Assembly: GCA_050260175.1 (NCBI GenBank)
Contig: JBLNBS010000053.1
Span: 9,815-73,814 of the forward strand
Source: Patescibacteria group bacterium
GTDB taxonomy: Bacteria; Bacillota; UBA4882; JAAYXC01
DNA: 64,000 nucleotides
Reading direction: 5' to 3'
Below are positions 1,265 through 64,000 of this stretch, piece after piece. Each line of letters starts with the position of its first letter. The first letter of the stretch is position 1. The position numbers and the translations under genes are program-made. The notes under the pieces are model-generated. The model was not told where the DNA came from, did no database searches, and saw only the letters and a program-made list of their open reading frames with translations.

Positions 1265-2395
1265 TCATCCTTGAAGGGGAGAAAGGGGGTGATGTTTTTG
1301 CCCCCCTTGGGCTTTACCGCGCCGGCCCCGGCTGATTGGGACGGCCGCCAGCAGAAGGGCCAGAACGGGCACCGGCGTGCGGAGAAGGAGCATGCCCGCG
1401 TCATACCGCGCCTGGACAGGCTCCGGCCAGGGGCGGTATGCCCGACGCGGTTTGGCCCGCGCGGCCGCGGCCGACATCAAATAGCGCAGGCCGCGCGCTG
1501 TTTCGCGGCTCGAGCGCGGGTCTCCGGCCCGGGCGGCACTGGGCTCCCCCGCGGCAGCAAGGCCCCCAAAGAGCAAGCGAAAGTCCTCGGCGAAAGTCTC
1601 CTCGGAGGACCGGGCCCAGTCCTGGGTCTTGACCGGGCCGTCCTCGCGCCAGATGAGCCCCCGCAACTCGAGGTATTCGTCCCAGAGCCGCCTGCCTTTG
1701 GCGGTCTCGCGCGGCATGCCCGCGAGGTGCACGTAATGGCCGAACTCGTGCGTCAGCGTGACCTCGAGCTGGTTTTCGATCAGCCGCTCGTGGCGGGGTT
1801 CGGCCGCCAGGAATGTGTATCCCGGACCGCCCTGGCCGCTCACATCCCCCATGGCGAAAGGCAGCAGGAAGACCTTGTACCCCCGCAGGGCCGCGTCGGG
1901 CACGGGCAGGGCGCGCAGGACGGCGGCCGCCCGCCGCGCGTCGGGATATTTCTCCTCCTCCGTGGTGGTCAAGGCCTGGCCGCCTATGCTGTAGAGCTCG
2001 TCGAGCGAGGGGAGGCTTTCCGGACGCGCGGTGTCCAGGGCGGCCTCGTATAGGTTCCGTGCCCGGTCGAGCAGAAACAGCCGCAGGGTCGTCTCCGGGG
2101 AATAGATGACAAAACCGCGCGCCGGGTCCGTCGCGCCGCCGACCGCGGCCGCGTGGACCCCGGCTTCCGCCATGAGGCGCAGCCCCTCCCGGAGCCTGGC
2201 CGTCCGCCGGTGCGGCGTGGACATCAGCCGCACGACCTCGTCGCGCCGGCCGGCGAGCCAGGAACGGGCTCCCTCGGGCCCGGGAAGGCTGGAAAGGACC
2301 GCGAGGACACGGCTCTCCGGCACCCGTGCGATCTCCGCGGCGCGGCCGGGGAGACCGGCGGCGAGCAGGGCGAACAAGATGAAGAAGAAACGCAT
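1265..2395 (-). CDS. Secreted zinc-metalloprotease-like protein (HEXXH motif)
   Basis: ATG at 2395 is preceded by GGGGGAGGTGAACGCC. Signal peptide [30 protein letters not shown] matches a zincin HEXXH site. Hydrophobic stretch at the C-terminus. The tool's TTG at 2413 lies inside the RBS. Confidence 0.65.
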
Positions 2396-2557
2396 GGCGT
2401 TCACCTCCCCCAAAAGACGGGCCCGGGCCTCTTGTCAGAATCCGAGGTGGAAACGGGCCGGCCGATGTCAGGCGTGATATGTACGGCCCCGGATCTGCAG
2501 GAATATCCATCCTCCTGTCGAAAAAGACGGGAAGTGGCTCTGCGGGGAGGGGGATCC

Positions 2558-4153
2558 ATGGCAGATAACCCGATCTTGCGCCGCAACGAGGAACAGACCA
2601 ATCTGCTCCTGGCGCGCGTCATGCGCTATTGCATCGGCTTCTTCGTCCTGATACTGGTCGTGCGATTGCTGGGCTTTTTCAGCACTCCCATCGTCCAGTA
2701 TCTGGCTCCCTTTGGCGTGGCCAGCGTGCTGTTGGCCCTGCCGACCCTGCTCATCGCCCTGAATCGCACGGGGCCGTGGTTCAAGTACCTTATCGTCGCC
2801 GCCTGCCTCGCGGGGGTGACCGCTCTCTATATCAATTACTGGGAGATCGGCCGCTTCATCGAGTTCCTGTGGCTCTTTCCGGTCATCATCTCCTGCGCGT
2901 ACGTCACGCCAGAGCTGACGGGTTACGCCAGCCTGGCGGCGCTCGTGCTCATGGGCCTCTTGTATGCCCTGGCCATGCCCAACCGCCCGGTCAAATACAC
3001 GGAGTACGTCACCGTGCACAACCTGCTGGGCGACCTCATCTTCAGGGGCGTCAACCTCCTCGCCGTCACCGCGCCCCTCTTCGGCCTGACCATCCGTTTC
3101 CGCCGGGCCATGATCGATCTGGTCGGGGCGGAGGAACAGAACGCGATCCTTTCCCGCCTGGCAAAAATGATGGGTGAAACGACCAAGGCCGCCGGCGCGC
3201 TCGTTTCGACCGCCGGCCGCCTGAGCGGCTTGGCGGCCGTCTCAGAGCAGGTGGGTGTCAAGGCCGCGGAGGTCGGCGGGGGGCTGTCGCGCAACTCCGA
3301 CGAGAACTTGAACCAGATTCGCGAGGCTGTCCCCGTCATCGTCGGCATGGCGGAACAGATCCGCTCCCTGGCCGGCGAGGTCGGCGAAGTGGCGAGGGCC
3401 ACCGAGGAAATGGACCGCATCGGCCAGGCCGGCAAAGCGGCCTTGGCCCAAGCCGCCGGGCAGATGTCAATCATCGAGCGCGCTGCGGAGGAAAGCCGCG
3501 GCCTGCTGGCGAGCCTCAGCGAACAATCCATCGCCGTGGGCCAGATCGTCAAGGTCATCACGAATATCGCCCGGCAAACCAAGCTCCTGGCCCTTAACGC
3601 CTCGATCGAGGCGGCCCGCGCGGGCGAGGAGGGCCGCGGCTTCCAGATCGTCGCCCTCTCCGTCCGCGACCTGGCCACGCAGGCCACCCAGGCCGCCGAG
3701 AGCATCACCGCGCTGATCGCCGAGATCCAGGCGCAGACCGCCACCGCCGCATCCGCCGTCGAGCGGGGGGGTACGCAGGTGGCCGCGGGCCTTTCGGCCA
3801 TCGGCGAGGTTCACGAGGCGTTCACCCAATTCGCCGCCGCGGAGCAGGAAATACACGCGCATATCGCCGATATCGCCGGCACCCTGCAACGGTTGGCGCA
3901 GGGCAGCGACCTCGTCGTCGCCTCCGCCAACAACATTGAGGCCCGTAACACGGCGGGCGTGGCAGAAGCCCGGAACGCGGCCGCCGCCGTGGAGGATATG
4001 CTGGACAACCTGCACCGCATCCGCATGGAACTCGCGCAACTCCAGGAGACCGCCGCGGTTCTCCATGCCCTGGGCGGCAGCCCCGTTCCCCACCCGGCGG
4101 CGGAGACTGCGCCCGGCTTTACGCGGCCGGCGGCTGCTTCCCCCTCATTATAA
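2558..4153 (+). CDS. Methyl-accepting chemotaxis protein with a polytopic N-terminal membrane domain
   Basis: RBS GGGGAGGGGG then ATG at 2558. About 6 predicted TM helices at the N-terminus. The C-terminal MCP signalling domain includes the highly conserved segment [24 protein letters not shown]. Confidence 0.85.
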
Positions 4154-7068: not shown

Positions 7069-7156
7069 GGAGGGGTGTCCGAGCGGTTTAAGGAGACGGT
7101 CTTGAAAACCGTTAGGCTGCAAGGCCTCGTGGGTTCGAATCCCACCTCCTCCGCCA
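7069..7156 (+). tRNA. tRNA-Ser, anticodon TGA (UGA); CCA encoded
   Basis: GGAGGGG acceptor stem pairs with CCTCCTCC (one G-U pair). Anticodon loop CTTGAAA. Long variable arm. T arm GGGTTCGAATCCC. 3' CCA at 7154-7156. Confidence 0.85.
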
Positions 7157-7316: not shown

Positions 7317-7408
7317 GGAGAGGTACCCAAGCCGGTCGAAGGGGACGGTTTGCTAAACCGTTAGTGGTCGTAAGGCCAGCGGGGGTTCGAATCCCCCCCT
7401 CTCCGCCA
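7317..7408 (+). tRNA. tRNA-Ser, anticodon GCT (GCU); CCA encoded
   Basis: GGAGAGG pairs perfectly with CCTCTCC. Anticodon loop TTGCTAA. Long variable arm. T arm GGGGGTTCGAATCCCCC. CCA at 7406-7408. Confidence 0.85.
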
Positions 7409-23995: not shown

Positions 23996-26686
23996 CTACC
24001 TCCCCACCTGCTTCCGCAGATCGGCCAGGATCTGCTGCTGGCGCCTGATGGCGTCCTGCTGCGCCCGGATGCTCTGTTCGAGCTCCTCGAGCAGGCGGAC
24101 GAGCTGATCCCGGGTCAGGCCCTCCGTGACAGCCGCCTGGCCGGGGCCAGGACCGGCCGGCGTTGCCGGCGGCGCCGCCCCGGTAAGCTGCGCCAGGGCC
24201 TCCTGCAGGTTGCTGCCGTAGGCGATACTATTCTTGTAGACGAGGACCACGAGTTTCAGCTCGGGCTGCTGGCCCTGCTCGGAGACGATGTAGACCGGCT
24301 CCACGTAGAGAAAGTCCCCGGCAAAGGGCAGGACCAGGAGATTGCCGCGGATGACCGAGGACTGCTGCTGGCCCCAGAGCGTCATGAGCTTTGAGATCTC
24401 GGGGTTCTGGGCGATCCTGCCCTCCACCTGGATGGGGCCGTAGATGATGCGGTCCTTGGGCAGGAGATAGACCAGGACCTGTCCGTAGTTCTCCCCGTCA
24501 CAACGTGCCGCCATCCAGGCGATCATGTTCTTGCGCCTGGGCGCGCTGGGCTTAAGGGGTTCCATGAGCACGAACTCGGCGTCCGCCTCGCCCGGCAGGC
24601 GCAGCATGAGGTAGTAGGGAGCGAGTTCCTCCTCCTGGCCCATGTAGGTCTCGGTGGGCACGGCCCAGGCGTCCTCTTTTTGAAAGAACGTCTTGGTGTC
24701 CCGCATGTGGTAGAGGAGGAGCATGTCGCGCTGGATGGTGAAGAGCCGCTCGGGGTAGCGCAGGTGGTCCCGGATGCTCTGCGGCATCCTGTCCCCGGGT
24801 GTGAAGAGCCTGGGGAAGACGCGCTGCCAGACCCGGATGATCGGATCTTCCCGATCGACCACGTAAAAGGTGGCCGTGCCGTCGTAGGCGTCGACCACGG
24901 CCTTGACCGAGTTCCTGACATAATTGATCCCGGTCCCCGCGTGGCGGGCCGCGTAGGGGTAGTTGGCGCTGTAGGTGTAGGCGTCGATGAGCCAATAAAG
25001 CCGTCCGTCCGCCATCACGAGGTATGGATCGGGATCGTAGTCGAGAAAGGGGGCGAGCTTGCGGACGCGGTCGGCCACGCGGCGGTAGAGCTGCACCTTG
25101 CTCTCGGGCGTGATGTATTCGGAGAGGACGAATTTGAAATCCCCAAAACGCAGGGCAAAGAGCAGACGTACCCAGAACGAGTCAAGCGGCACGCCGTCCT
25201 TGCCGGTGTAATCCGTGGTGATGTTCTGTTCCGACTCTGTGGGGTAGTCGAACTCGTGCAGGGCGTTGGGGGCGATGGTGTACTCGTTCTGGATCTCGCC
25301 GAAATAAACCTGCGGGCGGGTGACGGGGGGGAGGCCGGTGCCCGGGGCCACGCGGGGCGGGATGTCGCTGACCAGAAAGACCGGCTGCCCCTCGGGATTG
25401 ACCTCGCTGACCCCGTTCAGGACCAGCCCGTAGCCGTGCGTGTAGGCGAGATGGAGATTCTCCCAGTTCTGCGCGTTCGCCTGCAGCTGGGACGTGTCCA
25501 GTTCCCTGGCGGCGAGCATGACCTCGCGCTTTTGGCCGCCGATGACGTAGCGGTCGATGTCCATGTCGTTAAAGGTGTAATACTGGCGCAGGGCCTGCAG
25601 TTGCTCGTAGGAGAGCTGCAGGGTCCGGAAATCCCAGAGCCGCATGTTGGTGATGGTGGGACTGTCCTGGCTGAGCGCTTCGGCGGTGCGGCCGAGCGGA
25701 TAATCCCTGGTCACAAAACGGTCGAGCCCGAACGCCTTGCGCGTCATCTCGATGTGCCGGGCGAGGTACGGCTTTTCCCTGATGTACCTGTTCGGCCCCA
25801 CGACCAGGGCGTTGACCACGCCCGGGGCGATGCTCCCCAGCACAAAGGAGGAGGCCAAAAGCAGCGCGACGCCGCCCAGGAGCAGTCTGGCGCCGCGGCG
25901 GAACAGCCCCACGCCAAGGACAGCCACGCACCCCGCGGCGATCCAGGAGAGGGCGGTATAGACCGGCAGGCGGACGTGGGCCGCCGTAAAGTCCACGCCG
26001 GTCACGAGCCCCGTCTCGGCGAGGAGCAGGCCCTGCCGCGCCAGGGCGTAGTCCCAGATCTTGGCGGCAAGGAGGAGGGCCGCCAGGATGGTGAGATGGA
26101 TCTTGGCCTGCGACCGGAGGATGAAAGTCCTGCCCTGGCGCCAGAAGGCCCGGGAAGCCCAGTAAACGAAGCCCGTGCCCAGGAGGGCCATCCAGAGCAG
26201 GGTTTGCAGCAGACGGTTGAGGCTCCGCCAGATCGGGAACTGGAAGAGATAGTAACTCACGTCGCGATGCAGGATCGGGTCGGCGACGCCCATGCGGACG
26301 GGATGCAGGAACTGCTGCACCGCAGCCCAGCCCGGGTTGAGCGCCGAACCGATCAGCAGGGCGAGGAGAGCGCTGACGGCGAGATTGGCCCAGCCCCAGG
26401 GGATCCTGTCAAGTTGCAACTGGCTCCAGACGCCGCCTTGCTCCTCCGCGGGGTGCGGGCCTCTCAGTGCCCGCAGCGCCAGGCTGAAATTGAGGAAGAA
26501 GAAGGTAAAGGTTACGGCCCACGCCAGGAGCCGCAGGATCCAGCCGGTGGCGAAGGCCGTCCAGAAGACCGCGGTCAAACCCATGCTCCGGAACCAGAGC
26601 CAGTCCGTGAAGAAACTCGTCCCGGCCATCAGGAGCACGAGGACCAGCACCGCCAGTCCGACCGCGAGCCAGATTACCTTGCGCAT
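23996..26686 (-). CDS. UPF0182-family large membrane protein
   Basis: 896 aa. N-terminal multi-TM region with a TDWLWF motif, followed by a large extracytoplasmic domain. Confidence 0.8.
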   Translation of the reverse strand: MRKVIWLAVGLAVLVLVLLMAGTSFFTDWLWFRSMGLTAVFWTAFATGWILRLLAWAVTFTFFFLNFSLALRALRGPHPAEEQGGVWSQLQLDRIPWGWANLAVSALLALLIGSALNPGWAAVQQFLHPVRMGVADPILHRDVSYYLFQFPIWRSLNRLLQTLLWMALLGTGFVYWASRAFWRQGRTFILRSQAKIHLTILAALLLAAKIWDYALARQGLLLAETGLVTGVDFTAAHVRLPVYTALSWIAAGCVAVLGVGLFRRGARLLLGGVALLLASSFVLGSIAPGVVNALVVGPNRYIREKPYLARHIEMTRKAFGLDRFVTRDYPLGRTAEALSQDSPTITNMRLWDFRTLQLSYEQLQALRQYYTFNDMDIDRYVIGGQKREVMLAARELDTSQLQANAQNWENLHLAYTHGYGLVLNGVSEVNPEGQPVFLVSDIPPRVAPGTGLPPVTRPQVYFGEIQNEYTIAPNALHEFDYPTESEQNITTDYTGKDGVPLDSFWVRLLFALRFGDFKFVLSEYITPESKVQLYRRVADRVRKLAPFLDYDPDPYLVMADGRLYWLIDAYTYSANYPYAARHAGTGINYVRNSVKAVVDAYDGTATFYVVDREDPIIRVWQRVFPRLFTPGDRMPQSIRDHLRYPERLFTIQRDMLLLYHMRDTKTFFQKEDAWAVPTETYMGQEEELAPYYLMLRLPGEADAEFVLMEPLKPSAPRRKNMIAWMAARCDGENYGQVLVYLLPKDRIIYGPIQVEGRIAQNPEISKLMTLWGQQQSSVIRGNLLVLPFAGDFLYVEPVYIVSEQGQQPELKLVVLVYKNSIAYGSNLQEALAQLTGAAPPATPAGPGPGQAAVTEGLTRDQLVRLLEELEQSIRAQQDAIRRQQQILADLRKQVGR

Positions 26687-57638: not shown

Positions 57639-57820
57639 CGGTTCTAAAACCGATGCCTGTACGAAGGCGGCGCGCCAGTTCCAGCCGGAGTCGCCGCATC
57701 CCTCCGGCGGCCTGTTCTTGCCGCGGTCCACGGCTCCTAAGCCCGCGGCGGGAAGTCAGGAGACGGATGCGGCACCCAAGAACGACAACCCGATGCAATT
57801 CTGTAAGGGGGCAGACCAGC

Positions 57821-58552
57821 GTGTGGGAGGCGGAATCAGCCCTGGCGGGGCTCGTGGCGTGGCTGGGGGATCAGGTACGCCAGGCGGGCAGGGAGGGCGT
57901 GGTCTTTGGCATGAGCGGCGGGCTGGACTCCGCCGTGGTGGCCGGGCTTTGCCGGAGGTGCTTCGCGGATCGCGCCCGGGGGCTTTTTCTGGATTGCGAG
58001 AGCGATCCGGCGGATCTGGCGGACGCGGAGGCAGCGGCCGAGGCGGTCGGGCTCCCGCTTTTGCGCCTCGACCTGACGCAGGTTTACCGGGGCCTCCTGC
58101 AGGCGGCCTTCGGCCCCGACGCCTGGGCCCTGCCCCGCGTCGTCACGGCCAACGTCAAATCGCGCCTGCGCATGGTCACGCTTTATGCCTGGGCCAACAA
58201 GTTGAACTACCTGGTGGTGGGCACGGGCAACCTGGACGAGCTTACCGTGGGCTATTTCACGAAATACGGCGACAGCGGGGTCGATCTCCTGCCCCTGGGC
58301 GCGCTCACCAAGGGGAGGGTGCGCGAGTTGGGCAGGGCGCTCGGCCTGCCCGCCAGGGTGCTCGACAAGCCGCCCTCGGCCGGGCTCTGGCCCGGCCAGA
58401 CCGACGAGCGCGAACTGGGCCTGTCGTACGAGACCATCGACCGCTACCTCCTCGGGGCCGAGGTCGAACCAGAGGCCGCCGCCCGCATCGAGCGGCTCAG
58501 GCAGGCGAGCGGGCACAAACGCGCGATGCCGCCGATCGCGCCGCTCGCATGA
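57821..58552 (+). CDS. nadE: NH3-dependent NAD+ synthetase NadE (proposed GTG start)
   Basis: AAGGGGG 8 nt before GTG 57821. LVAWLGDQVRQAGREGVVFGMSGGLDSAVVAGL is the NadE PP-loop. The tool's start at 57410 adds about 137 Arg/Pro-rich residues. Confidence 0.85.
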   Translation: MWEAESALAGLVAWLGDQVRQAGREGVVFGMSGGLDSAVVAGLCRRCFADRARGLFLDCESDPADLADAEAAAEAVGLPLLRLDLTQVYRGLLQAAFGPDAWALPRVVTANVKSRLRMVTLYAWANKLNYLVVGTGNLDELTVGYFTKYGDSGVDLLPLGALTKGRVRELGRALGLPARVLDKPPSAGLWPGQTDERELGLSYETIDRYLLGAEVEPEAAARIERLRQASGHKRAMPPIAPLA

Positions 58553-59331
58553 AACAAGCCGTCTTGCCAAAGCTGGCCCGCGCCGCCGGGCCGCCGGCCG
58601 TGCCCCTCGTTCTCCTCGCGGCCTGGGCCATCGCGGCCGGGCGTGCCGGGGACGCCTTCCTCCTGCCGGGGCCGGCGGATGTCTGGCGGGCCCTGCTGGA
58701 ACTCGCGCGGAGCGGCCGCCTGGCCGGGGGGCTCCTGCTCAGCCTGGCCCGGGTCTGCGCGGGTTTCCTCCTGGCCGCGGCTTGCGGCGTGCCTCTGGGA
58801 ATCCTGGCCGGCAGATCGGCCTGGTTCACCCGGGCCAGCCGCGGCACGCTGGATTTTTTCCGCCAGGTGCCCGCGGTGGCGCTGGTGCCGCTCTTCATCC
58901 TCTGGTTCGGCCTTGGCGAAGCATCCAAGTTGGTGGTGATCTTCTACGCCTCGTTCTTCCCGGTCTTCCTCGCGGCGGAACTCGGCGCGGAGCAGGCCGA
59001 TCCCCTGCTCGTCGAGGCCGGCCGGCTGTATTTGCGCAAGCCCGGGGCGGTTTTGCGCCGTGTGATCCTGCCCTCCGCCCTGCCCGCTCTCATGACAGGG
59101 CTCAGGCTGGGCGTGGGTTACGGCTGGCGATCCCTGGTGGTCGCGGAGATGCTGGCCGCCGCCAGGGGTCTGGGAGCCCTGATCGTCGAGGCGCGCGGGT
59201 TCGGCCGGACCGACGCTATGCTGGCCGGCGTGCTCTGCATCGGCGCGGCGGGTATCCTGCTCGACCGGGCGCTCTCGGCTGCGGAGAGGGCCGTGCCCTG
59301 GGCCCGGCGGCAGGAGGCAAGCCGTGGTTAG
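58549..59331 (+). CDS. ABC transporter permease, NitT/TauT (SsuC/TauC) family
   Basis: ATGA overlap with the nadE stop codon. Six TM helices and an EAA-like loop. Confidence 0.85.
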   Translation: MKQAVLPKLARAAGPPAVPLVLLAAWAIAAGRAGDAFLLPGPADVWRALLELARSGRLAGGLLLSLARVCAGFLLAAACGVPLGILAGRSAWFTRASRGTLDFFRQVPAVALVPLFILWFGLGEASKLVVIFYASFFPVFLAAELGAEQADPLLVEAGRLYLRKPGAVLRRVILPSALPALMTGLRLGVGYGWRSLVVAEMLAAARGLGALIVEARGFGRTDAMLAGVLCIGAAGILLDRALSAAERAVPWARRQEASRG

Positions 59332-60079
59332 CCTGCGTTTCGCCGGGGTCAGCCACGGTTTCGGCAGGCTCCCCGTGCTCGCGGCGCTCGACCTCGCGGT
59401 GGCGCCGGGTGAGGTCGTGGCGATCCTGGGACCGAGCGGCTGCGGCAAGACGACGCTCCTCCGCCTGGCGGCGGGGCTGCTCGCGCCCGCCTCCGGCAGG
59501 ATCGAGCGCCCGTCGCGCGTGGGCATGGCGTTTCAGGAGCCGCGGCTCCTGCCCTGGCGGGACTGCCTGGGGAACGTGCTTTTTGGCGTGGACGGCCCGG
59601 TCACGGCCGCGCACCGGGCGCGGGCCGGCGAATTACTGGCAGCCCTGGGGCTTTTGGGATTCGAATCGTACCGGCCCGCCGCCCTCTCGGGCGGTATGGC
59701 ACACCGCGTCTCGCTTGCCCGCGCCCTGATCGGCCGGCCGGAGCTGCTCTTGCTGGATGAGCCGCTGGCCGGCATGGATTATTTCGGCCGCACGGACCTG
59801 GAGGAACGCCTGGCGTCGCTCTGGCGCGAGGAACAGCCGGCGGTGCTGCTCGTTACCCACGATCCCGACGAAGCACTCTACCTGGCCGATCGCATCCTGA
59901 TCCTCTCGCCGCGCCCCGGCAGGATCGTGGCGGAACAGCGGGTGGCGGCGGCCCGGCCGCGCGACCGGCTCGCGCCGGACGCAGCCGCGGCCAGGGCGGT
60001 GTTACTGGCCGCTCTGAGACGCGCCCGGGAATCCTCCGCTCCGGATCCGGGCGACGCGATCTCCACGTCTCAACCCTGA
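59324..60079 (+). CDS. ABC transporter ATP-binding protein, NitT/TauT (SsuB-like) family
   Basis: Walker A GPSGCGKTT, signature LSGGMAHRVSLARA, Walker B LLLLDEPLAGMD. Confidence 0.9.
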   Translation: MVSLRFAGVSHGFGRLPVLAALDLAVAPGEVVAILGPSGCGKTTLLRLAAGLLAPASGRIERPSRVGMAFQEPRLLPWRDCLGNVLFGVDGPVTAAHRARAGELLAALGLLGFESYRPAALSGGMAHRVSLARALIGRPELLLLDEPLAGMDYFGRTDLEERLASLWREEQPAVLLVTHDPDEALYLADRILILSPRPGRIVAEQRVAAARPRDRLAPDAAAARAVLLAALRRARESSAPDPGDAISTSQP

Positions 60080-60110
60080 TGCACTACGCAAAAGCTCGGG
60101 AGGTTTTGAT

Positions 60111-61058
60111 ATGCGCAAGGGTGTGTTCTTTAGCCTGCTTCTTTTCGCGCTCCCGGCCCTGGCCGGCCTGTGCCTGGCAGGCCGTGCGCAGGTCCTGAGA
60201 GTCTCGTACAACCCCATGCCCCTGAATCTGCCGTCCATCATCCTGCGGCGGCGGGGTTATCTGGAGGAAGCCGCGGCAGCCCTTGGCTGGCGGGTGGAGT
60301 GGGTCTCCAACCTGCAGACCGGCCCCCTGATGTCCGAGGCCATGGCCGCCGGCGCGCTGGATATCGCCGCGGTCATGGGCGAAACGTCCGCAGTGGTGGC
60401 AAAAGCCGCAGGCAACGACCTGGTCGTCGTGGCGCCTTACAGCGTGGCTCCGGGTGCCTTTGCCCTCGTCGTGCCGGCAACCGGCGGAGCAACCGGCGCG
60501 GCGGGCCTGGCCGGGAAGAGGATCGGTCTGCCGGTGGGGACCACGGCCCATTATCTCCTGGCGCGTTTTTTGGCTACGGAGGGCCTGTCCTTGGCTAAAC
60601 TGGAAGTGGTGAACATGGCCGTGCCGGACGCGGCCGCCGCCGTCGCCGCCGGTCGGCTGGACGGGGCGGTCCTGGTCGAGCCGGTGCTCAGCAGGGTTTT
60701 GGCCGGGGGCAAGGTGCGGCTGCTCAGGGACGGCACGGGCCTGATCGGCGGTTTGACGGTGACGAGCGTGCGCGGTGAGCTGTGGCGCGGGGAGCCGGCC
60801 CTTGTCCGGGCCTTCCTTGGCGCGGTCTCCCGCGCCGGGCGCTACCTGGCGGAGCACATGGACGAGGCCGTAGACGAAGCCGCCGGGGAAACCGGCCTCC
60901 CGCCCGAACTGGTGCGCAAGATCGCGGCCAAGTACCGGTTCCTGGAGATCCCCGCCACGGAGATGCGCCGCGAGCTGGGCGCAGTCATCAGCTTTCTCGC
61001 GGAACAGAAGCTGATCGCCAGGCGGCCGGCCCTGGCCGATCTCGTGGTCGAGCCGTGA
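60111..61058 (+). CDS. ABC substrate-binding protein, NitT/TauT (SsuA/NMT1-like) family. Signal peptide without a lipobox.
   Basis: RBS GGGAGG. Signal peptide MRKGVFFSLLLFALPALAGLCLAG followed by the periplasmic-binding fold. Confidence 0.8.
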   Translation: MRKGVFFSLLLFALPALAGLCLAGRAQVLRVSYNPMPLNLPSIILRRRGYLEEAAAALGWRVEWVSNLQTGPLMSEAMAAGALDIAAVMGETSAVVAKAAGNDLVVVAPYSVAPGAFALVVPATGGATGAAGLAGKRIGLPVGTTAHYLLARFLATEGLSLAKLEVVNMAVPDAAAAVAAGRLDGAVLVEPVLSRVLAGGKVRLLRDGTGLIGGLTVTSVRGELWRGEPALVRAFLGAVSRAGRYLAEHMDEAVDEAAGETGLPPELVRKIAAKYRFLEIPATEMRRELGAVISFLAEQKLIARRPALADLVVEP

Positions 61059-61077
61059 CCCCTCACCCCCAACCCTT

Positions 61078-61157
61078 CTCCCATGGAGCCCATGGGGAGA
61101 GGGGAGCCCTTGGGCTTTAGACCCCGTTGGTTTTGCCCTCTCCCACCGGGAGAGGGC
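61078..61157 (+). terminator. Two GC-rich perfect hairpins with 3-nt loops (CTCCCATGG-AGC-CCATGGGAG and GCCCTCTCCC-ACC-GGGAGAGGGC)
   Basis: Directly downstream of the substrate-binding-protein stop codon. No U-tract. Same hairpin style as the intergenic repeat family. Confidence 0.4.
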
Positions 61158-61239
61158 GGCGCGAATGGTGAGGTCCGGAACAGGGATTCAGACTTTTTCA
61201 CAACGCATCTAATGAGAACCGCGGCATGGAGGTACGCGC

Positions 61240-61701
61240 ATGAACGAACAGCTACGTAAACACACCTCGGGACCCATCCTGGTCAGCGCCTGCCTGCTGG
61301 GCGAGGCCTGCCGCTACGACAGGAGCCACTGCCGGCATGAAGGCGTGGCCAGGCTCGCGGCCGAAGGCCGTGCGATCCCGGTCTGCCCGGAAATGCTGGG
61401 GGGCCTCGGCGCGCCGCGGCCGCCGGCGGAGATCGTGGGGGGCGACGGCGCGGCCGTCCTGAACGGCCGGGCAAAGGTCGTCGACCGGGAGGGGCGCGAC
61501 CTGACCGGAGCTTTCGTCTACGGTGCCGAACTGGCGCTGGCCGAGGCCAAGCGGCACGGCGCCGCCGCCGCTTTGCTAAAAGAGGGGAGCCCCTCCTGCG
61601 GCGTGCGGCGGATCAACGGGGGAACCCCCGGCAAGGGCGTGACCGCGGCCCTGCTGGAGCTGGAGGGGTTGGCTGTCTACAGCGAGGAGGATGTGGACTG
61701 A
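61240..61701 (+). CDS. DUF523 (YbbK/TudS-like) protein
   Basis: PILVSACLLGEACRYD and the downstream Cys residues are conserved in DUF523. RBS GGAGGT. Confidence 0.7.
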   Translation: MNEQLRKHTSGPILVSACLLGEACRYDRSHCRHEGVARLAAEGRAIPVCPEMLGGLGAPRPPAEIVGGDGAAVLNGRAKVVDREGRDLTGAFVYGAELALAEAKRHGAAAALLKEGSPSCGVRRINGGTPGKGVTAALLELEGLAVYSEEDVD

Positions 61702-61869
61702 CTGCCATTGACCGATCGATCGCACCGCTTGCAGTTGTTCGTATTCACCAGACTCCGGAAGGATTTTTGGGTTGCGGCAAGAATTTGGGTAGCGAGCGGT
61801 CACAGTTGATGTGGATGCTCTCTGTCCAAAGATCGCTCAAAATTTAATAATTATAAAGGAGATTATGTT

Positions 61870-62814
61870 ATGAAACGTTATTTATTCCTCATTCCCCTGA
61901 TGTTTCTCCTTTCGCTGACATTATTGGCGGCGGAATCGAATTTCGGCGTCAAAGATCCGGGTTTACTCAATTTGAAAGGCTTGATTTACTACCTGCCCGA
62001 AGAAACCTACGAGATGCCCGCCGATCTCGAGCAACAAGAGCCCCGGGGCGTCATCTACACGAAAAAACTGGATATTCCCGCCCGTGATTTCACAGAGGGA
62101 TTTCCGGGCGTCACGGATCGGTTCGAGTGGTTCGGCCTGATCTACACGGGCACGTTTGAGATCACAAAACCCGGCCTGTACCAATGGCGGCTCGAGTCCG
62201 ACGACGGCAGCCGCCTGTGGATCGATAACGAGGAGATCATCAATAACGACGGCGTCCACGACATGACCTCCGCCGATGCCGAGCAGCAACTGGGCAAGGG
62301 CCGGCACACCATCAAGGTTTGGTATTTCCAGGGACCGGCCACCGAGGTCGGCTTGCGGCTCTTTATCAAGGCGCCCGGGGAAAAGGAGAAGATCTTCTCC
62401 CTGGATGATTTCTCCGTCGGTGTCTCCGCGGCGTTGAACAGCGTCAGCGCAAAGGCGACGCGGGATGGGATCCTCGTCCAGTTGGACGCGCAACTCCTGT
62501 TCGATTCCAACAAGTTCGAGATCAAGCCCGCGGCCGCGCAGAGCATCAAGAACACGGCCGAGATCATCGCCATGTACCCGGGCTGCCTGGTCCGCATCGA
62601 GGGGCACACGGACAATATCGGAAGCGAGCAGGACAACCAAAAGCTGTCGGAGAACCGCGCCCGCGCCGTCAAGGAGGCGCTCGTCAAGGCGAATGTGCCC
62701 AGGAACACCCGCTTTGAAGTCATCGGTTACGGGGAAACCCGGCCCGTGGCGGATAATGGTACGGAAGCGGGGCGGGCCAAGAACCGGCGGGTGGAGATCC
62801 TGATCGTGCCGTGA
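61870..62814 (+). CDS. Secreted PA14-domain protein with a C-terminal OmpA-like peptidoglycan-binding domain
   Basis: RBS AAAGGAG. Signal peptide. PA14 core (YQWRLESDDGSRLWIDNEEIINNDGVH). OmpA core (RIEGHTDNIGS...NRRVEI). The 5' end is AT-rich. Confidence 0.8.
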   Translation: MKRYLFLIPLMFLLSLTLLAAESNFGVKDPGLLNLKGLIYYLPEETYEMPADLEQQEPRGVIYTKKLDIPARDFTEGFPGVTDRFEWFGLIYTGTFEITKPGLYQWRLESDDGSRLWIDNEEIINNDGVHDMTSADAEQQLGKGRHTIKVWYFQGPATEVGLRLFIKAPGEKEKIFSLDDFSVGVSAALNSVSAKATRDGILVQLDAQLLFDSNKFEIKPAAAQSIKNTAEIIAMYPGCLVRIEGHTDNIGSEQDNQKLSENRARAVKEALVKANVPRNTRFEVIGYGETRPVADNGTEAGRAKNRRVEILIVP

Positions 62815-62889
62815 CCACGCTCATCCATCAGCGCGTCGAGGCGGCCGGGGCCGGCACGAATCCCACCGGTGCATATACCAGGAAAGCTC

Positions 62890-63178
62890 GTGATTACGCG
62901 ATGTTTCGGCCCGCGTATGCACCGCAAGCCATTGATGCCCTCCTGAAGCTCACCGGCCTCGACTCAACCTGGGCCGTCGCGGATCGTAGAGACGATGACC
63001 GGATCTTGATCTCGGTCGCCGATGACGGAGTGGGCTTCGATCCCGCCAAGCTCGCGGCGGGCCGGTCCGCTTTCGGGCTGGAGGTGATGCGGGAGCGCGC
63101 CGCGCAGATCGGCGGCGAGGTCCGGATCGAGACTGCGCCGGGGCGGGGCACCACGGTGGCGGTGGCCGTTGCTGTATA
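62890..63178 (+). pseudogene. Remnant of a sensor histidine kinase (C-terminal HATPase_c of NarX/LiaS type only)
   Basis: ILISVADDGVGFDP...FGLEVMRERAAQIGGEVRIETAPGRGTTVAVAV. No HisKA or sensor domain upstream. The sequence upstream belongs to the OmpA gene. Confidence 0.55.
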
Positions 63179-63290
63179 TCAGCGAACGGACGGTCAAATA
63201 CCAGATGGCCGAGATCCTGCGCCAGCTCCAGCTCGAAACCCGCCGTCAGGCCATTGCATACGCCCGCAAAGCGGGATTGGGCAAGGAGGA
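63178..63290 (+). pseudogene. Remnant of a LuxR/NarL-type response regulator (last approximately 35 aa of the HTH only), in a different frame and directly abutting the kinase remnant
   Basis: ISERTVKYQMAEILRQLQLETRRQAIAYARKAGL is a recognition-helix and C-terminal segment. No receiver domain is present. Confidence 0.5.
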
Positions 63291-63387
63291 CGAGCGGCGG
63301 GGATTGAAGGTCTCAGCCGGCCGCGTCGTATGGCAAAGGTCGAATCACAAAAGGAAAATGCGAAATGCGCGAAAGCGGGAGGCAAAA

Positions 63388-64000
63388 GTGGCAATCAGAA
63401 AGGCGATCTCGCTGAACCCCACCAACGTATTCTGGGCGGCATTGCTGATCGTACTCCTGGCCTATCTCTCATTTGTCGCATCCATCGCTCTTCGCTCCAG
63501 CGGCGACAGGCAATACTCCCTCCCGGAAGAATCCATCACCAATCGTCTTGAAGCGCGTATTCCCGTTTTGATGAAAACCTACGGTATTCCAGGAGTCAGC
63601 CTGGCCCTCATCCAGCAAGGCAAGACGGTCTGGTCCCAGGCTTACGGCTACGCCGACCTCGGGACAAGGAGAAAAATGACCGTCGATACCCATTGCCGGG
63701 TGGAGTCCATCTCCAAATCGGTCACCGCCTGGGGTATCATGAAACTGGTTGAGCAAGGCCAGATAGAGCTGGACAAGCCGGTGGGAACGTACATAAAAAA
63801 CTGGGTCTTCCCGGAATCGCGGTTCTCGGCGGAGAACGTGACCGTCAGGCGGCTGCTCAGTCACAACGCCGGCATGCCCCTGGGGACGATCGGCGTACGC
63901 TACGCGCCGGGGGGAGAGATCCCTTCCCTGGAGGAGAGTTTGACCAAGGAAGCCGTGCTCCGGCAGGAGCCCGGCTCGTCGTTTTCCTATTCCAACACGG
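63388..64000 (+). CDS. Beta-lactamase-family serine hydrolase (class-C/PBP4*-like), partial (runs off the window end)
   Basis: GGGAGG 5 nt before GTG 63388. N-terminal TM/signal segment. The SISKS (S-x-x-K) active-site motif lies in ESISKSVTAWGIMKLV. Confidence 0.7.
   Translation, partial: MAIRKAISLNPTNVFWAALLIVLLAYLSFVASIALRSSGDRQYSLPEESITNRLEARIPVLMKTYGIPGVSLALIQQGKTVWSQAYGYADLGTRRKMTVDTHCRVESISKSVTAWGIMKLVEQGQIELDKPVGTYIKNWVFPESRFSAENVTVRRLLSHNAGMPLGTIGVRYAPGGEIPSLEESLTKEAVLRQEPGSSFSYSNT

Follow-up and report, generated by a model that had tools for sequence, protein, structure and literature searches.

Fragments of two genes in a 573-bp gap between an ompA gene and a hydrolase gene: a probable deletion scar

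Between a PA14-OmpA gene and a beta-lactamase-family gene lies a gap of 573 bp, among the longest non-coding stretches of the otherwise tightly packed 64,000-nucleotide stretch of DNA that we analysed (hereafter the window, to which all positions refer). What does this gap contain, and does any of it still work? A first-pass annotation read it as the remains of a two-component system, in which two deletions had left the 3' ends of a kinase gene and of a separate regulator gene next to each other. Our analysis indicates that the gap is very probably a deletion scar made of three dead fragments of two genes, one for a methyltransferase and one for a kinase and regulator. The features are collected in Table 1.

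Table 1. Positions of the flanking genes, the gene fragments and the open reading frame that crosses them
Feature	Positions	Strand	Basis and remarks
PA14-OmpA gene, intact, 314 aa, left flank of the relic	61870..62814	+	Pfam PA14 and OmpA domains
Chimeric ORF, 246 aa	62811..63551	+	ORF list; GTG overlaps the ompA stop as GTGA
Class I SAM-dependent methyltransferase, 5' fragment, ~47 codons	62841..62984	+	phmmer, tblastn, DNA alignment
HATPase_c 3' fragment of a HisKA_3-type (NarX/LiaS-like) histidine kinase, ~62 codons	62985..63170	+	Pfam, NCBIfam, tblastn
LuxR/GerE HTH 3' fragment, ~40 codons	63169..63288	+, +1 frame relative to the kinase piece	GerE profile, tblastn, 3'-end alignment
Residual spacer and hydrolase leader	63289..63387	+	Sequence; contains 63301/63302, ATG 63358 and GGGAGG
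Beta-lactamase-family serine hydrolase gene, 5' part, right flank	63388..64000, runs off the window	+	Pfam Beta-lactamase, E=2.6e-33

The OmpA protein has more than 500 full-length homologues and is identical to NCBI MGE5528467.1 (79.8-kb MAG contig). The hydrolase is of the 'CubicO group peptidase' type, with homologues of 470-485 aa that are 59-73% identical to it. We translated all frames of 62780-63420 to identify what lies between these two genes. The frame of 62811, in which the kinase fragment and the methyltransferase piece are read together, gives ...NPTGAYTRKARDYAMFRPAYAPQAIDALLKLTGLDSTWAVAD-RRDDDRILISVADDGVGFDPAKLAAGRSAFGLEVMRERAAQIGGEVRIETAPGRGTTVAVAVAV, while the +1 frame from 63169 gives LLYISERTVKYQMAEILRQLQLETRRQAIAYARKAGLGKEDERR. 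The fragments have coding-like GC3 only in their ancestral frames, with values of 0.84 for the kinase piece and 0.80 for the LuxR piece.

The kinase piece is real. On the frame-0 translation, Pfam HATPase_c matches with E=6.6e-10 and 39.8 bits (gathering score 26.4) over profile positions 27-106 of 111, and NCBIfam groups the piece with the NarQ, UhpB, MacS, LiaS and NarX kinases. The first-pass annotation had recognized this NarX/LiaS-type segment, calling it perfect and placing it immediately after ompA. The G1 box (DDGVGF) and the G2 box (PGRGTTV) are indeed retained, but the domain is incomplete: the N-box, which reads ALANVRKHA in the intact homologue L022 described below, lies upstream of the breakpoint, and methyltransferase-derived sequence stands there instead. 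The piece starts at about 62985, which is 170 nt past the ompA stop at 62814. The annotation was right that no HisKA or sensor domain precedes it. HisKA_3 has no match in any frame of 62780-63420, and the alignment with L022 begins at residue 497 of that protein, whose HisKA_3 domain occupies residues 362-427; the piece thus lacks the HisKA_3 domain with its phospho-accepting His, the PAS domain and the 7TM sensor.

The second piece is the end of a LuxR-type regulator in a different frame, abutting or overlapping the kinase piece at about 63168-63172, as the annotation had described. Pfam GerE matches the +1 frame over profile positions 27-57 of 57 with E=1e-4 and 22.3 bits, just below the gathering score of 23.5, and the C-terminus of the MadR response regulator matches the same frame with E=2.7e-5 in NCBIfam, whose models identify the piece as the end of MadR/EpsA/CsgD-type LuxR regulators. 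Of the four HTH helices, the remnant retains the recognition helix and the final one; the first two are gone. The annotation had also found no receiver domain, and we agree: there is no Pfam Response_reg match, and L022 residues 565-768, including the REC domain at 591-701, have no counterpart in the window. The natural stop has been lost as well. Homologues end GLGKEK-stop, which places the expected stop codon one or two codons past GLGKE, while the window has GLGKEDERRGLKV... at this point, with no stop. The open stretch of the +1 frame begins at 63091 and extends into the hydrolase start, GTG 63388, in agreement with the annotation's remark that the regulator frame runs open into the start of the hydrolase gene.

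A third fragment had been overlooked. Positions 62890-62984, which the annotation had included with the kinase, belong to the N-terminal part of a methyltransferase according to phmmer, tblastn and DNA alignment. With the first 62 residues of the chimeric ORF as query against 1.84 billion representative proteins, phmmer gave two relevant matches, namely the gene call of this locus itself (P0250, see below) and a 212-aa protein (P0249) carrying Pfam Methyltransf_11/25, at E=8e-13 and 68% identity; tblastn of P0249 against the window gave E=1e-17 and 67% identity. The contig that encodes P0249 (L014) is 75.8% identical at the DNA level over 62854-62973 without gaps. The similarity stops at ...WAVAD, one residue short of motif I, where VAD is followed by IGSGTG in the homologue, and the ATG of 'MNPTDAY' in L014 has become ACG in the window (62856-62858). 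The window ORF has no Methyltransf match in Pfam, and the SAM-binding motif I (GxGxG) is absent. The other three phmmer matches were repetitive proteins aligned over many short stretches, which we take to be low-complexity noise, and a PDB search with the N-terminal 62 aa returned noise only. We also considered whether 'MTTLIHQRVEAAGAG' (62811-62853) might be a fourth, HIT-like fragment, and rejected this: no search supported it, and DNA homology with L014 starts only at 62854.

To identify intact relatives of the kinase and regulator pieces, we scanned metagenomes with the concatenated translations of the two fragments, which returned 80 loci. The kinase piece is 71% identical to L021 (Ga0209643_1005791) and 68% identical to L022 (Ga0196971_1000165, a 64-kb contig), with the next best at no more than 56%, and the LuxR piece is 79.5% identical to both. 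In these two loci the kinase and LuxR matches lie 621 nt apart, in the same order and in one frame, within a single ORF of 884 aa (L021) or 808 aa (L022) whose Pfam architecture is HisKA_7TM-PAS-HisKA_3-HATPase_c-REC-GerE. The annotation had proposed a tblastn search of the region with intact LiaS/LiaR-like pairs; we ran it with the fused 808-aa L022 protein against the whole 64-kb window and obtained two matches only, colinear and on the same strand, which confirm the relic. L022 residues 497-564 correspond to window positions 62976-63179 (E=7e-21, 62-71% identity) and residues 769-807 to 63172-63288 (E=1e-13). A colinear pair of this kind is far beyond chance. Compared with the intact homologues, about 612-621 nt are missing between the two pieces, which accounts for the linker, REC and the N-terminal half of the HTH. 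What is left in the window amounts to about 13% of the fused protein, over two reading frames, and no ORF contains the six domains. Nucleotide alignments put the points at which homology switches at 62984/62985 and about 63168-63172, and its end at about 63288.

Judging from these homologues, the kinase and regulator pieces most likely derive from one fused gene, because the three closest intact relatives (L021, L022 and L032, a GC-rich locus with the next-best regulator match at 50%) carry the kinase, the receiver and the LuxR HTH in one ORF. The first-pass annotation had assumed two genes, and its identification of the domains stands while its division of them into separate genes probably does not. 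If the ancestor did have a classical kinase gene followed by a regulator gene, as in liaSR and narXL, the middle deletion would have taken the kinase stop codon together with the intergenic region and the first two-thirds of the regulator gene. Such separate genes are found among the more distant of the 80 loci (L038, L046, L075, L089 and L090), at a spacing of 527-685 nt, and the best NCBIfam models for the kinase piece are classical kinases. However, the loci with the most similar regulator ends are all fused, and for the kinase piece L021 and L022 stand far ahead of the remaining matches. The linker has been deleted, so the relic itself cannot decide, and the fused state of the ancestor would have to be read from homologues in organisms with a GC content of 0.43-0.49 as opposed to 0.66, that is, compositionally very different ones. 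On balance we consider separate ancestral genes unlikely.

Starting from a fused gene, we infer the following order and mechanism of deletions. A first deletion would have started near codon 48 of the methyltransferase gene and ended near codon 497 of the signalling gene, which would thereby have lost residues 1-496; that the two were joined in frame would be chance. A second, of about 0.6 kb (some 204 internal codons), would have taken the linker, REC and half of the HTH; its length was presumably not a multiple of three, because the LuxR piece now lies in the +1 frame. A third event, at about 63290-63301, may have taken away the stop codon and fused what remained to the hydrolase leader. For the NarL-family kinase and regulator we retain the deletions and the juxtaposed 3' ends of the first-pass annotation, but the left deletion ends inside a methyltransferase gene. 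Without the phospho-accepting His, the N-box, the receiver Asp, a full HTH and the SAM-binding motif, nothing functional would appear to be left, and this DNA most probably serves now as no more than a spacer or leader ahead of the hydrolase gene. Repeats at the junctions were short, chance-level matches only. At the kinase-LuxR junction, a microhomology (GGTGGCG/GGTAGCG) is possible but only suggestive.

We looked for the source of the fragments and for an intact version of the locus. The 64-kb window contains no intact paralogue of the kinase-regulator gene or of the methyltransferase gene. The annotation had also suggested comparing the syntenic locus in relatives. A scan of GTDB genomes with OmpA gave distant OmpA-domain matches only; two OmpA relatives (L011 and L012, 80% and 71% identical) share no synteny with the window, and five hydrolase relatives (L016-L020, 59-65% identical) have unrelated neighbours and again no shared synteny. 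The comparison thus revealed no close relative that still has the genes intact at this position. In L012, a beta-lactamase-family gene and a methyltransferase gene do lie beside ompA, and we rejected them as counterparts: they are not orthologous to those of the window. The spacer itself has no Rfam match at E<=1, and its predicted RNA fold is not unusual, with z-scores of -1.05 and -0.09 (the latter for 63289-63387). A scan of 61600-63600 detected no sigma-70-like promoter, and the interval from ompA to the hydrolase gene has no terminator.

With significant homology, truncation, disruption of frame and no intact paralogue nearby, the locus has the features by which pseudogene remnants are recognized. 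Like other bacterial pseudogene remnants, it shows similarity over only 5-25% of the length of the families concerned, has lost the catalytic and binding modules, is disrupted in frame with no intact ORF of coding composition, and forms an unusually long spacer in a compact genome. Unlike them, it packs three fragments of two unrelated genes into about 450 bp, one of the junctions is in frame, and the fragments have neither internal stops nor decayed motifs. The diagnostic motifs inside the fragments are all intact. This absence of internal stops and motif decay suggests that the events were fairly recent.

Comparison with working systems shows what has been lost. Kinases of the HisKA_3/HATPase_c type act with NarL/FixJ (LuxR-type) regulators in NarX-NarL, LiaS-LiaR and DesK-DesR. 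The relic resembles these in the DDGVGF, (G)LxxMxERA and PGxGT motifs of its kinase piece and in the ISERTVKYxM...RxxA pattern of its HTH piece, but all that remains in it is the final part of the ATPase domain and the end of the HTH, and it cannot work as they do because no phosphotransfer residue is present. Single-polypeptide two-component proteins with a kinase-REC-GerE arrangement, as in L021, L022 and L032, are comparable in principle to the hybrid two-component systems of Bacteroides, which have an AraC output. Both fragments align with residues 497-564 and 769-807 of such a protein in order and on one strand, whereas the window lacks the stop codon as well as residues 1-496 and 565-768; its own descent from a fused gene is probable rather than observed. 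For the class I SAM methyltransferases (Methyltransf_11/25, P0249), the N-terminal residues, about 47 of them, agree at 67-68% identity and the DNA at 76%, but the fragment ends right before motif I and the whole Rossmann fold is missing. The scar is a genuine but ordinary case of gene decay and not a new system. It indicates that the lineage once had a gene for a one-polypeptide kinase-receiver-LuxR protein, together with a methyltransferase gene, beside the PA14-OmpA gene.

A different possibility is that the fragments form a functional small protein, encoded by the 216- or 246-aa ORF, or that translation from ATG 63205 gives the hydrolase an N-terminal extension with the LuxR helix. The chimeric ORF consists, in order, of 14 aa, the N-terminal methyltransferase piece, the C-terminal kinase piece and a 124-aa tail that reads through the LuxR remnant and 164 nt into the hydrolase gene in the wrong frame. 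Neither reading frame is interrupted, and gene callers have picked up both: P0250 is a call from ATG 62901 to 63551 (216 aa, 100% identical to the chimeric ORF), and the Logan pipeline called the hydrolase from ATG 63205, within the LuxR remnant. In addition, the GTG at 62811 overlaps the ompA stop, and the single SNP between strains in the relic is synonymous. However, the tail has a GC3 of 0.43-0.45, typical of off-frame reading, compared with 0.75-0.86 in real genes nearby. None of the starts at 62811, 62901 and 63205 has a usefully spaced Shine-Dalgarno sequence in front of it, and the elements of every fold are incomplete, with no N-box, half an HTH and no SAM motif. The arrangement is also absent from the other proteins found. 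The fusion of a methyltransferase N-terminus to a kinase C-terminus occurred only in the call from this locus, both when phmmer compared the N-terminal part of the ORF with 1.84 billion representative proteins and when the fragment region was queried against 5.8 billion proteins through a word index, and the contig index has no gene on record with exactly the product of P0250.

The hydrolase homologues speak against the extension in particular. Their N-termini align with GTG 63388 or with the in-frame alternative start at ATG 63358. Nine of the closest homologues start 20-35 residues ahead of the conserved core, level with GTG 63388, and all nine of those aligned (9/9) lack a LuxR-like N-terminal extension. 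Among the matches listed, at least 120, query coverage never reaches beyond the hydrolase part. A good Shine-Dalgarno sequence, GGGAGG (63377-63382), precedes GTG 63388 by 5 nt. The read-through translation that the first-pass annotation thought conceivable has the open frame it needs, but it is unlikely to matter. We conclude that a functional product of either kind is very improbable, and that P0250 and the extended hydrolase call are annotation artefacts.

Some translation of the chimeric ORF is still conceivable, given the GTGA overlap with the ompA stop. The ORF spans the ribosome-binding site and the start of the hydrolase gene, and its translation might in principle couple or occlude expression of the hydrolase, in which case dead fragments would have become a regulatory leader ORF; we hold this to be a very slim chance. 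For annotation, the scar is a caution: gene callers turned it into a 216-aa 'protein' with a HATPase_c match (P0250) and into an extended hydrolase, and recognizing the relic prevents a kinase or regulator that does not exist from being counted.

An independent check on the mosaic is provided by other assemblies. Three Logan contigs, from three separate sibling runs and another assembler, cover the locus. L001 (SRR24035586) is 100% identical to the window over 58125-63481, through 63301; L010 (SRR24035588) is 98.5% identical over 57742-63301 and L015 (SRR24035587) 99.1% identical over 59599-63301. The latter two are strain variants with SNPs in the flanking sequence, and their methyltransferase-kinase and kinase-LuxR junctions are the same as those of the window. 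One might suspect a chimera of assembly or binning, in which reads of different organisms were joined at short repeats: the sequence comes from a metagenome-assembled genome whose taxon label is doubtful, GC shifts at about 61700, the nearest homologues of the fragments come from unrelated metagenomes, and two of the Logan contigs break at 63301. Because three separate assemblies, two of them strain variants, reproduce both junctions, and L001 continues past that break, the mosaic is not an assembly artefact, the error that the annotation had named as a way to overturn its own reading, and we give a chimera almost no credence. Assemblies of different strains share both junctions, which means that the deletions predate the split of these strains.

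The break at 63301 is an oddity. L015 ends exactly there, and L010 diverges at 63302 and ends five bases later, which looks like a graph branch of the kind that a structural polymorphism at the relic's right-hand edge would produce. Among strains that occur together, the locus is structurally unstable.

The strains differ by 0.9-1.5%, yet over the 487 nt of the relic there is a single SNP, located at 62888 and silent in frame 0. By itself this low divergence could hint at constraint, but it looks like a block effect: ompA has four SNPs in 945 nt (0.42%), compared with 1.4-2.6% in the upstream genes and 3-5% in spacers, and we rejected selection specific to the relic because ompA is equally low. 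The block of low divergence would fit a recombination tract or a recent island, and it roughly coincides with the drop in GC content at about 61700, upstream of the relic.

The nearest intact relatives of the kinase and LuxR-type fragments that lie, together with a methyltransferase fragment, between ompA (61870-62814) and the beta-lactamase-family gene are fused proteins encoded at three metagenome loci, L021, L022 and L032. In these proteins, which are 808-884 aa long, the whole two-component pathway is carried on a single polypeptide with the domain order HisKA_7TM-PAS-HisKA_3-HATPase_c-REC-GerE. Downstream of the fused gene in both L021 and L022 are an HD-domain gene and a GGDEF-like gene; judged by eye from its translation, the former appears HD-GYP-like.

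Two gene calls run across the relic formed by the three fragments. In Logan, the call of the beta-lactamase-family gene begins at an ATG at 63205, within the LuxR remnant (window 63205-63481; L001:5081-5356, the contig from sibling run SRR24035586), while another pipeline called a 216-aa protein, P0250, from the ATG at 62901 to 63551. Both calls are artefacts of frames that are open across the relic.

On the right-hand side of the relic, the Logan contigs of two sibling runs end or depart from the window at one and the same base (window 63301-63302): L015 (SRR24035587) ends at 63301, and past that position L010 (SRR24035588) reads AAGCG where the window reads GATTG, and then ends. This break is probably explained by a structural polymorphism at the relic's right edge. 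One possibility for the alternative path in L010 is a 71-nt deletion to 63372, a reading that rests on five bases.

Across window 57742-63301, strain divergence is block-wise. Upstream of 61700, strains differ by 1.4-2.6% in genes and 3-5% in spacers; the difference is 0.42% in ompA and 0.21% in the relic. L015 looks like a recombinant in which the L010 type is combined with that of the window. Along 59000-64000, GC content is 0.70-0.77 up to 61600, 0.40-0.44 in the spacer at 61700-61900, and 0.54-0.70 from ompA on; the drop could mark the edge of an acquired or variable segment.

A similar neighbourhood occurs at L012:7490-9905 (GCA_040961635.1), where an ompA whose product is 71% identical to that of the window is immediately preceded by genes for a beta-lactamase-family protein and for a methyltransferase. 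Neither gene is an orthologue of its counterpart in the window, the first being 29% identical to the window's hydrolase and the second giving no match to the methyltransferase fragment, so the likeness appears coincidental.

Because the Rfam tRNA model did not report it at gathering score, the tRNA-Lys(ttt) prediction is probably a false positive.

Coordinates of predicted tRNA genes and of intact fused relatives
Feature	Location	Strand	Remarks
tRNA-Lys(ttt) prediction	24826-24905	-	ARAGORN; within long ORF 23996-26686(-)
tRNA-Ser genes (two)	7069-7156; 7317-7408		ARAGORN and Rfam agree
Fused kinase-regulator genes	L021:288-2942; L022:4504-6930; L032 about 2283-3140		

The taxon label of the bin looks doubtful. 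The OmpA protein (MGE5528467.1) is labelled 'Patescibacteria group bacterium' by NCBI, and contig GC is about 66%; those PA14-OmpA homologues at 50-70% identity that are named carry labels such as Aminicenantes, Acidobacteria and Myxococcales.
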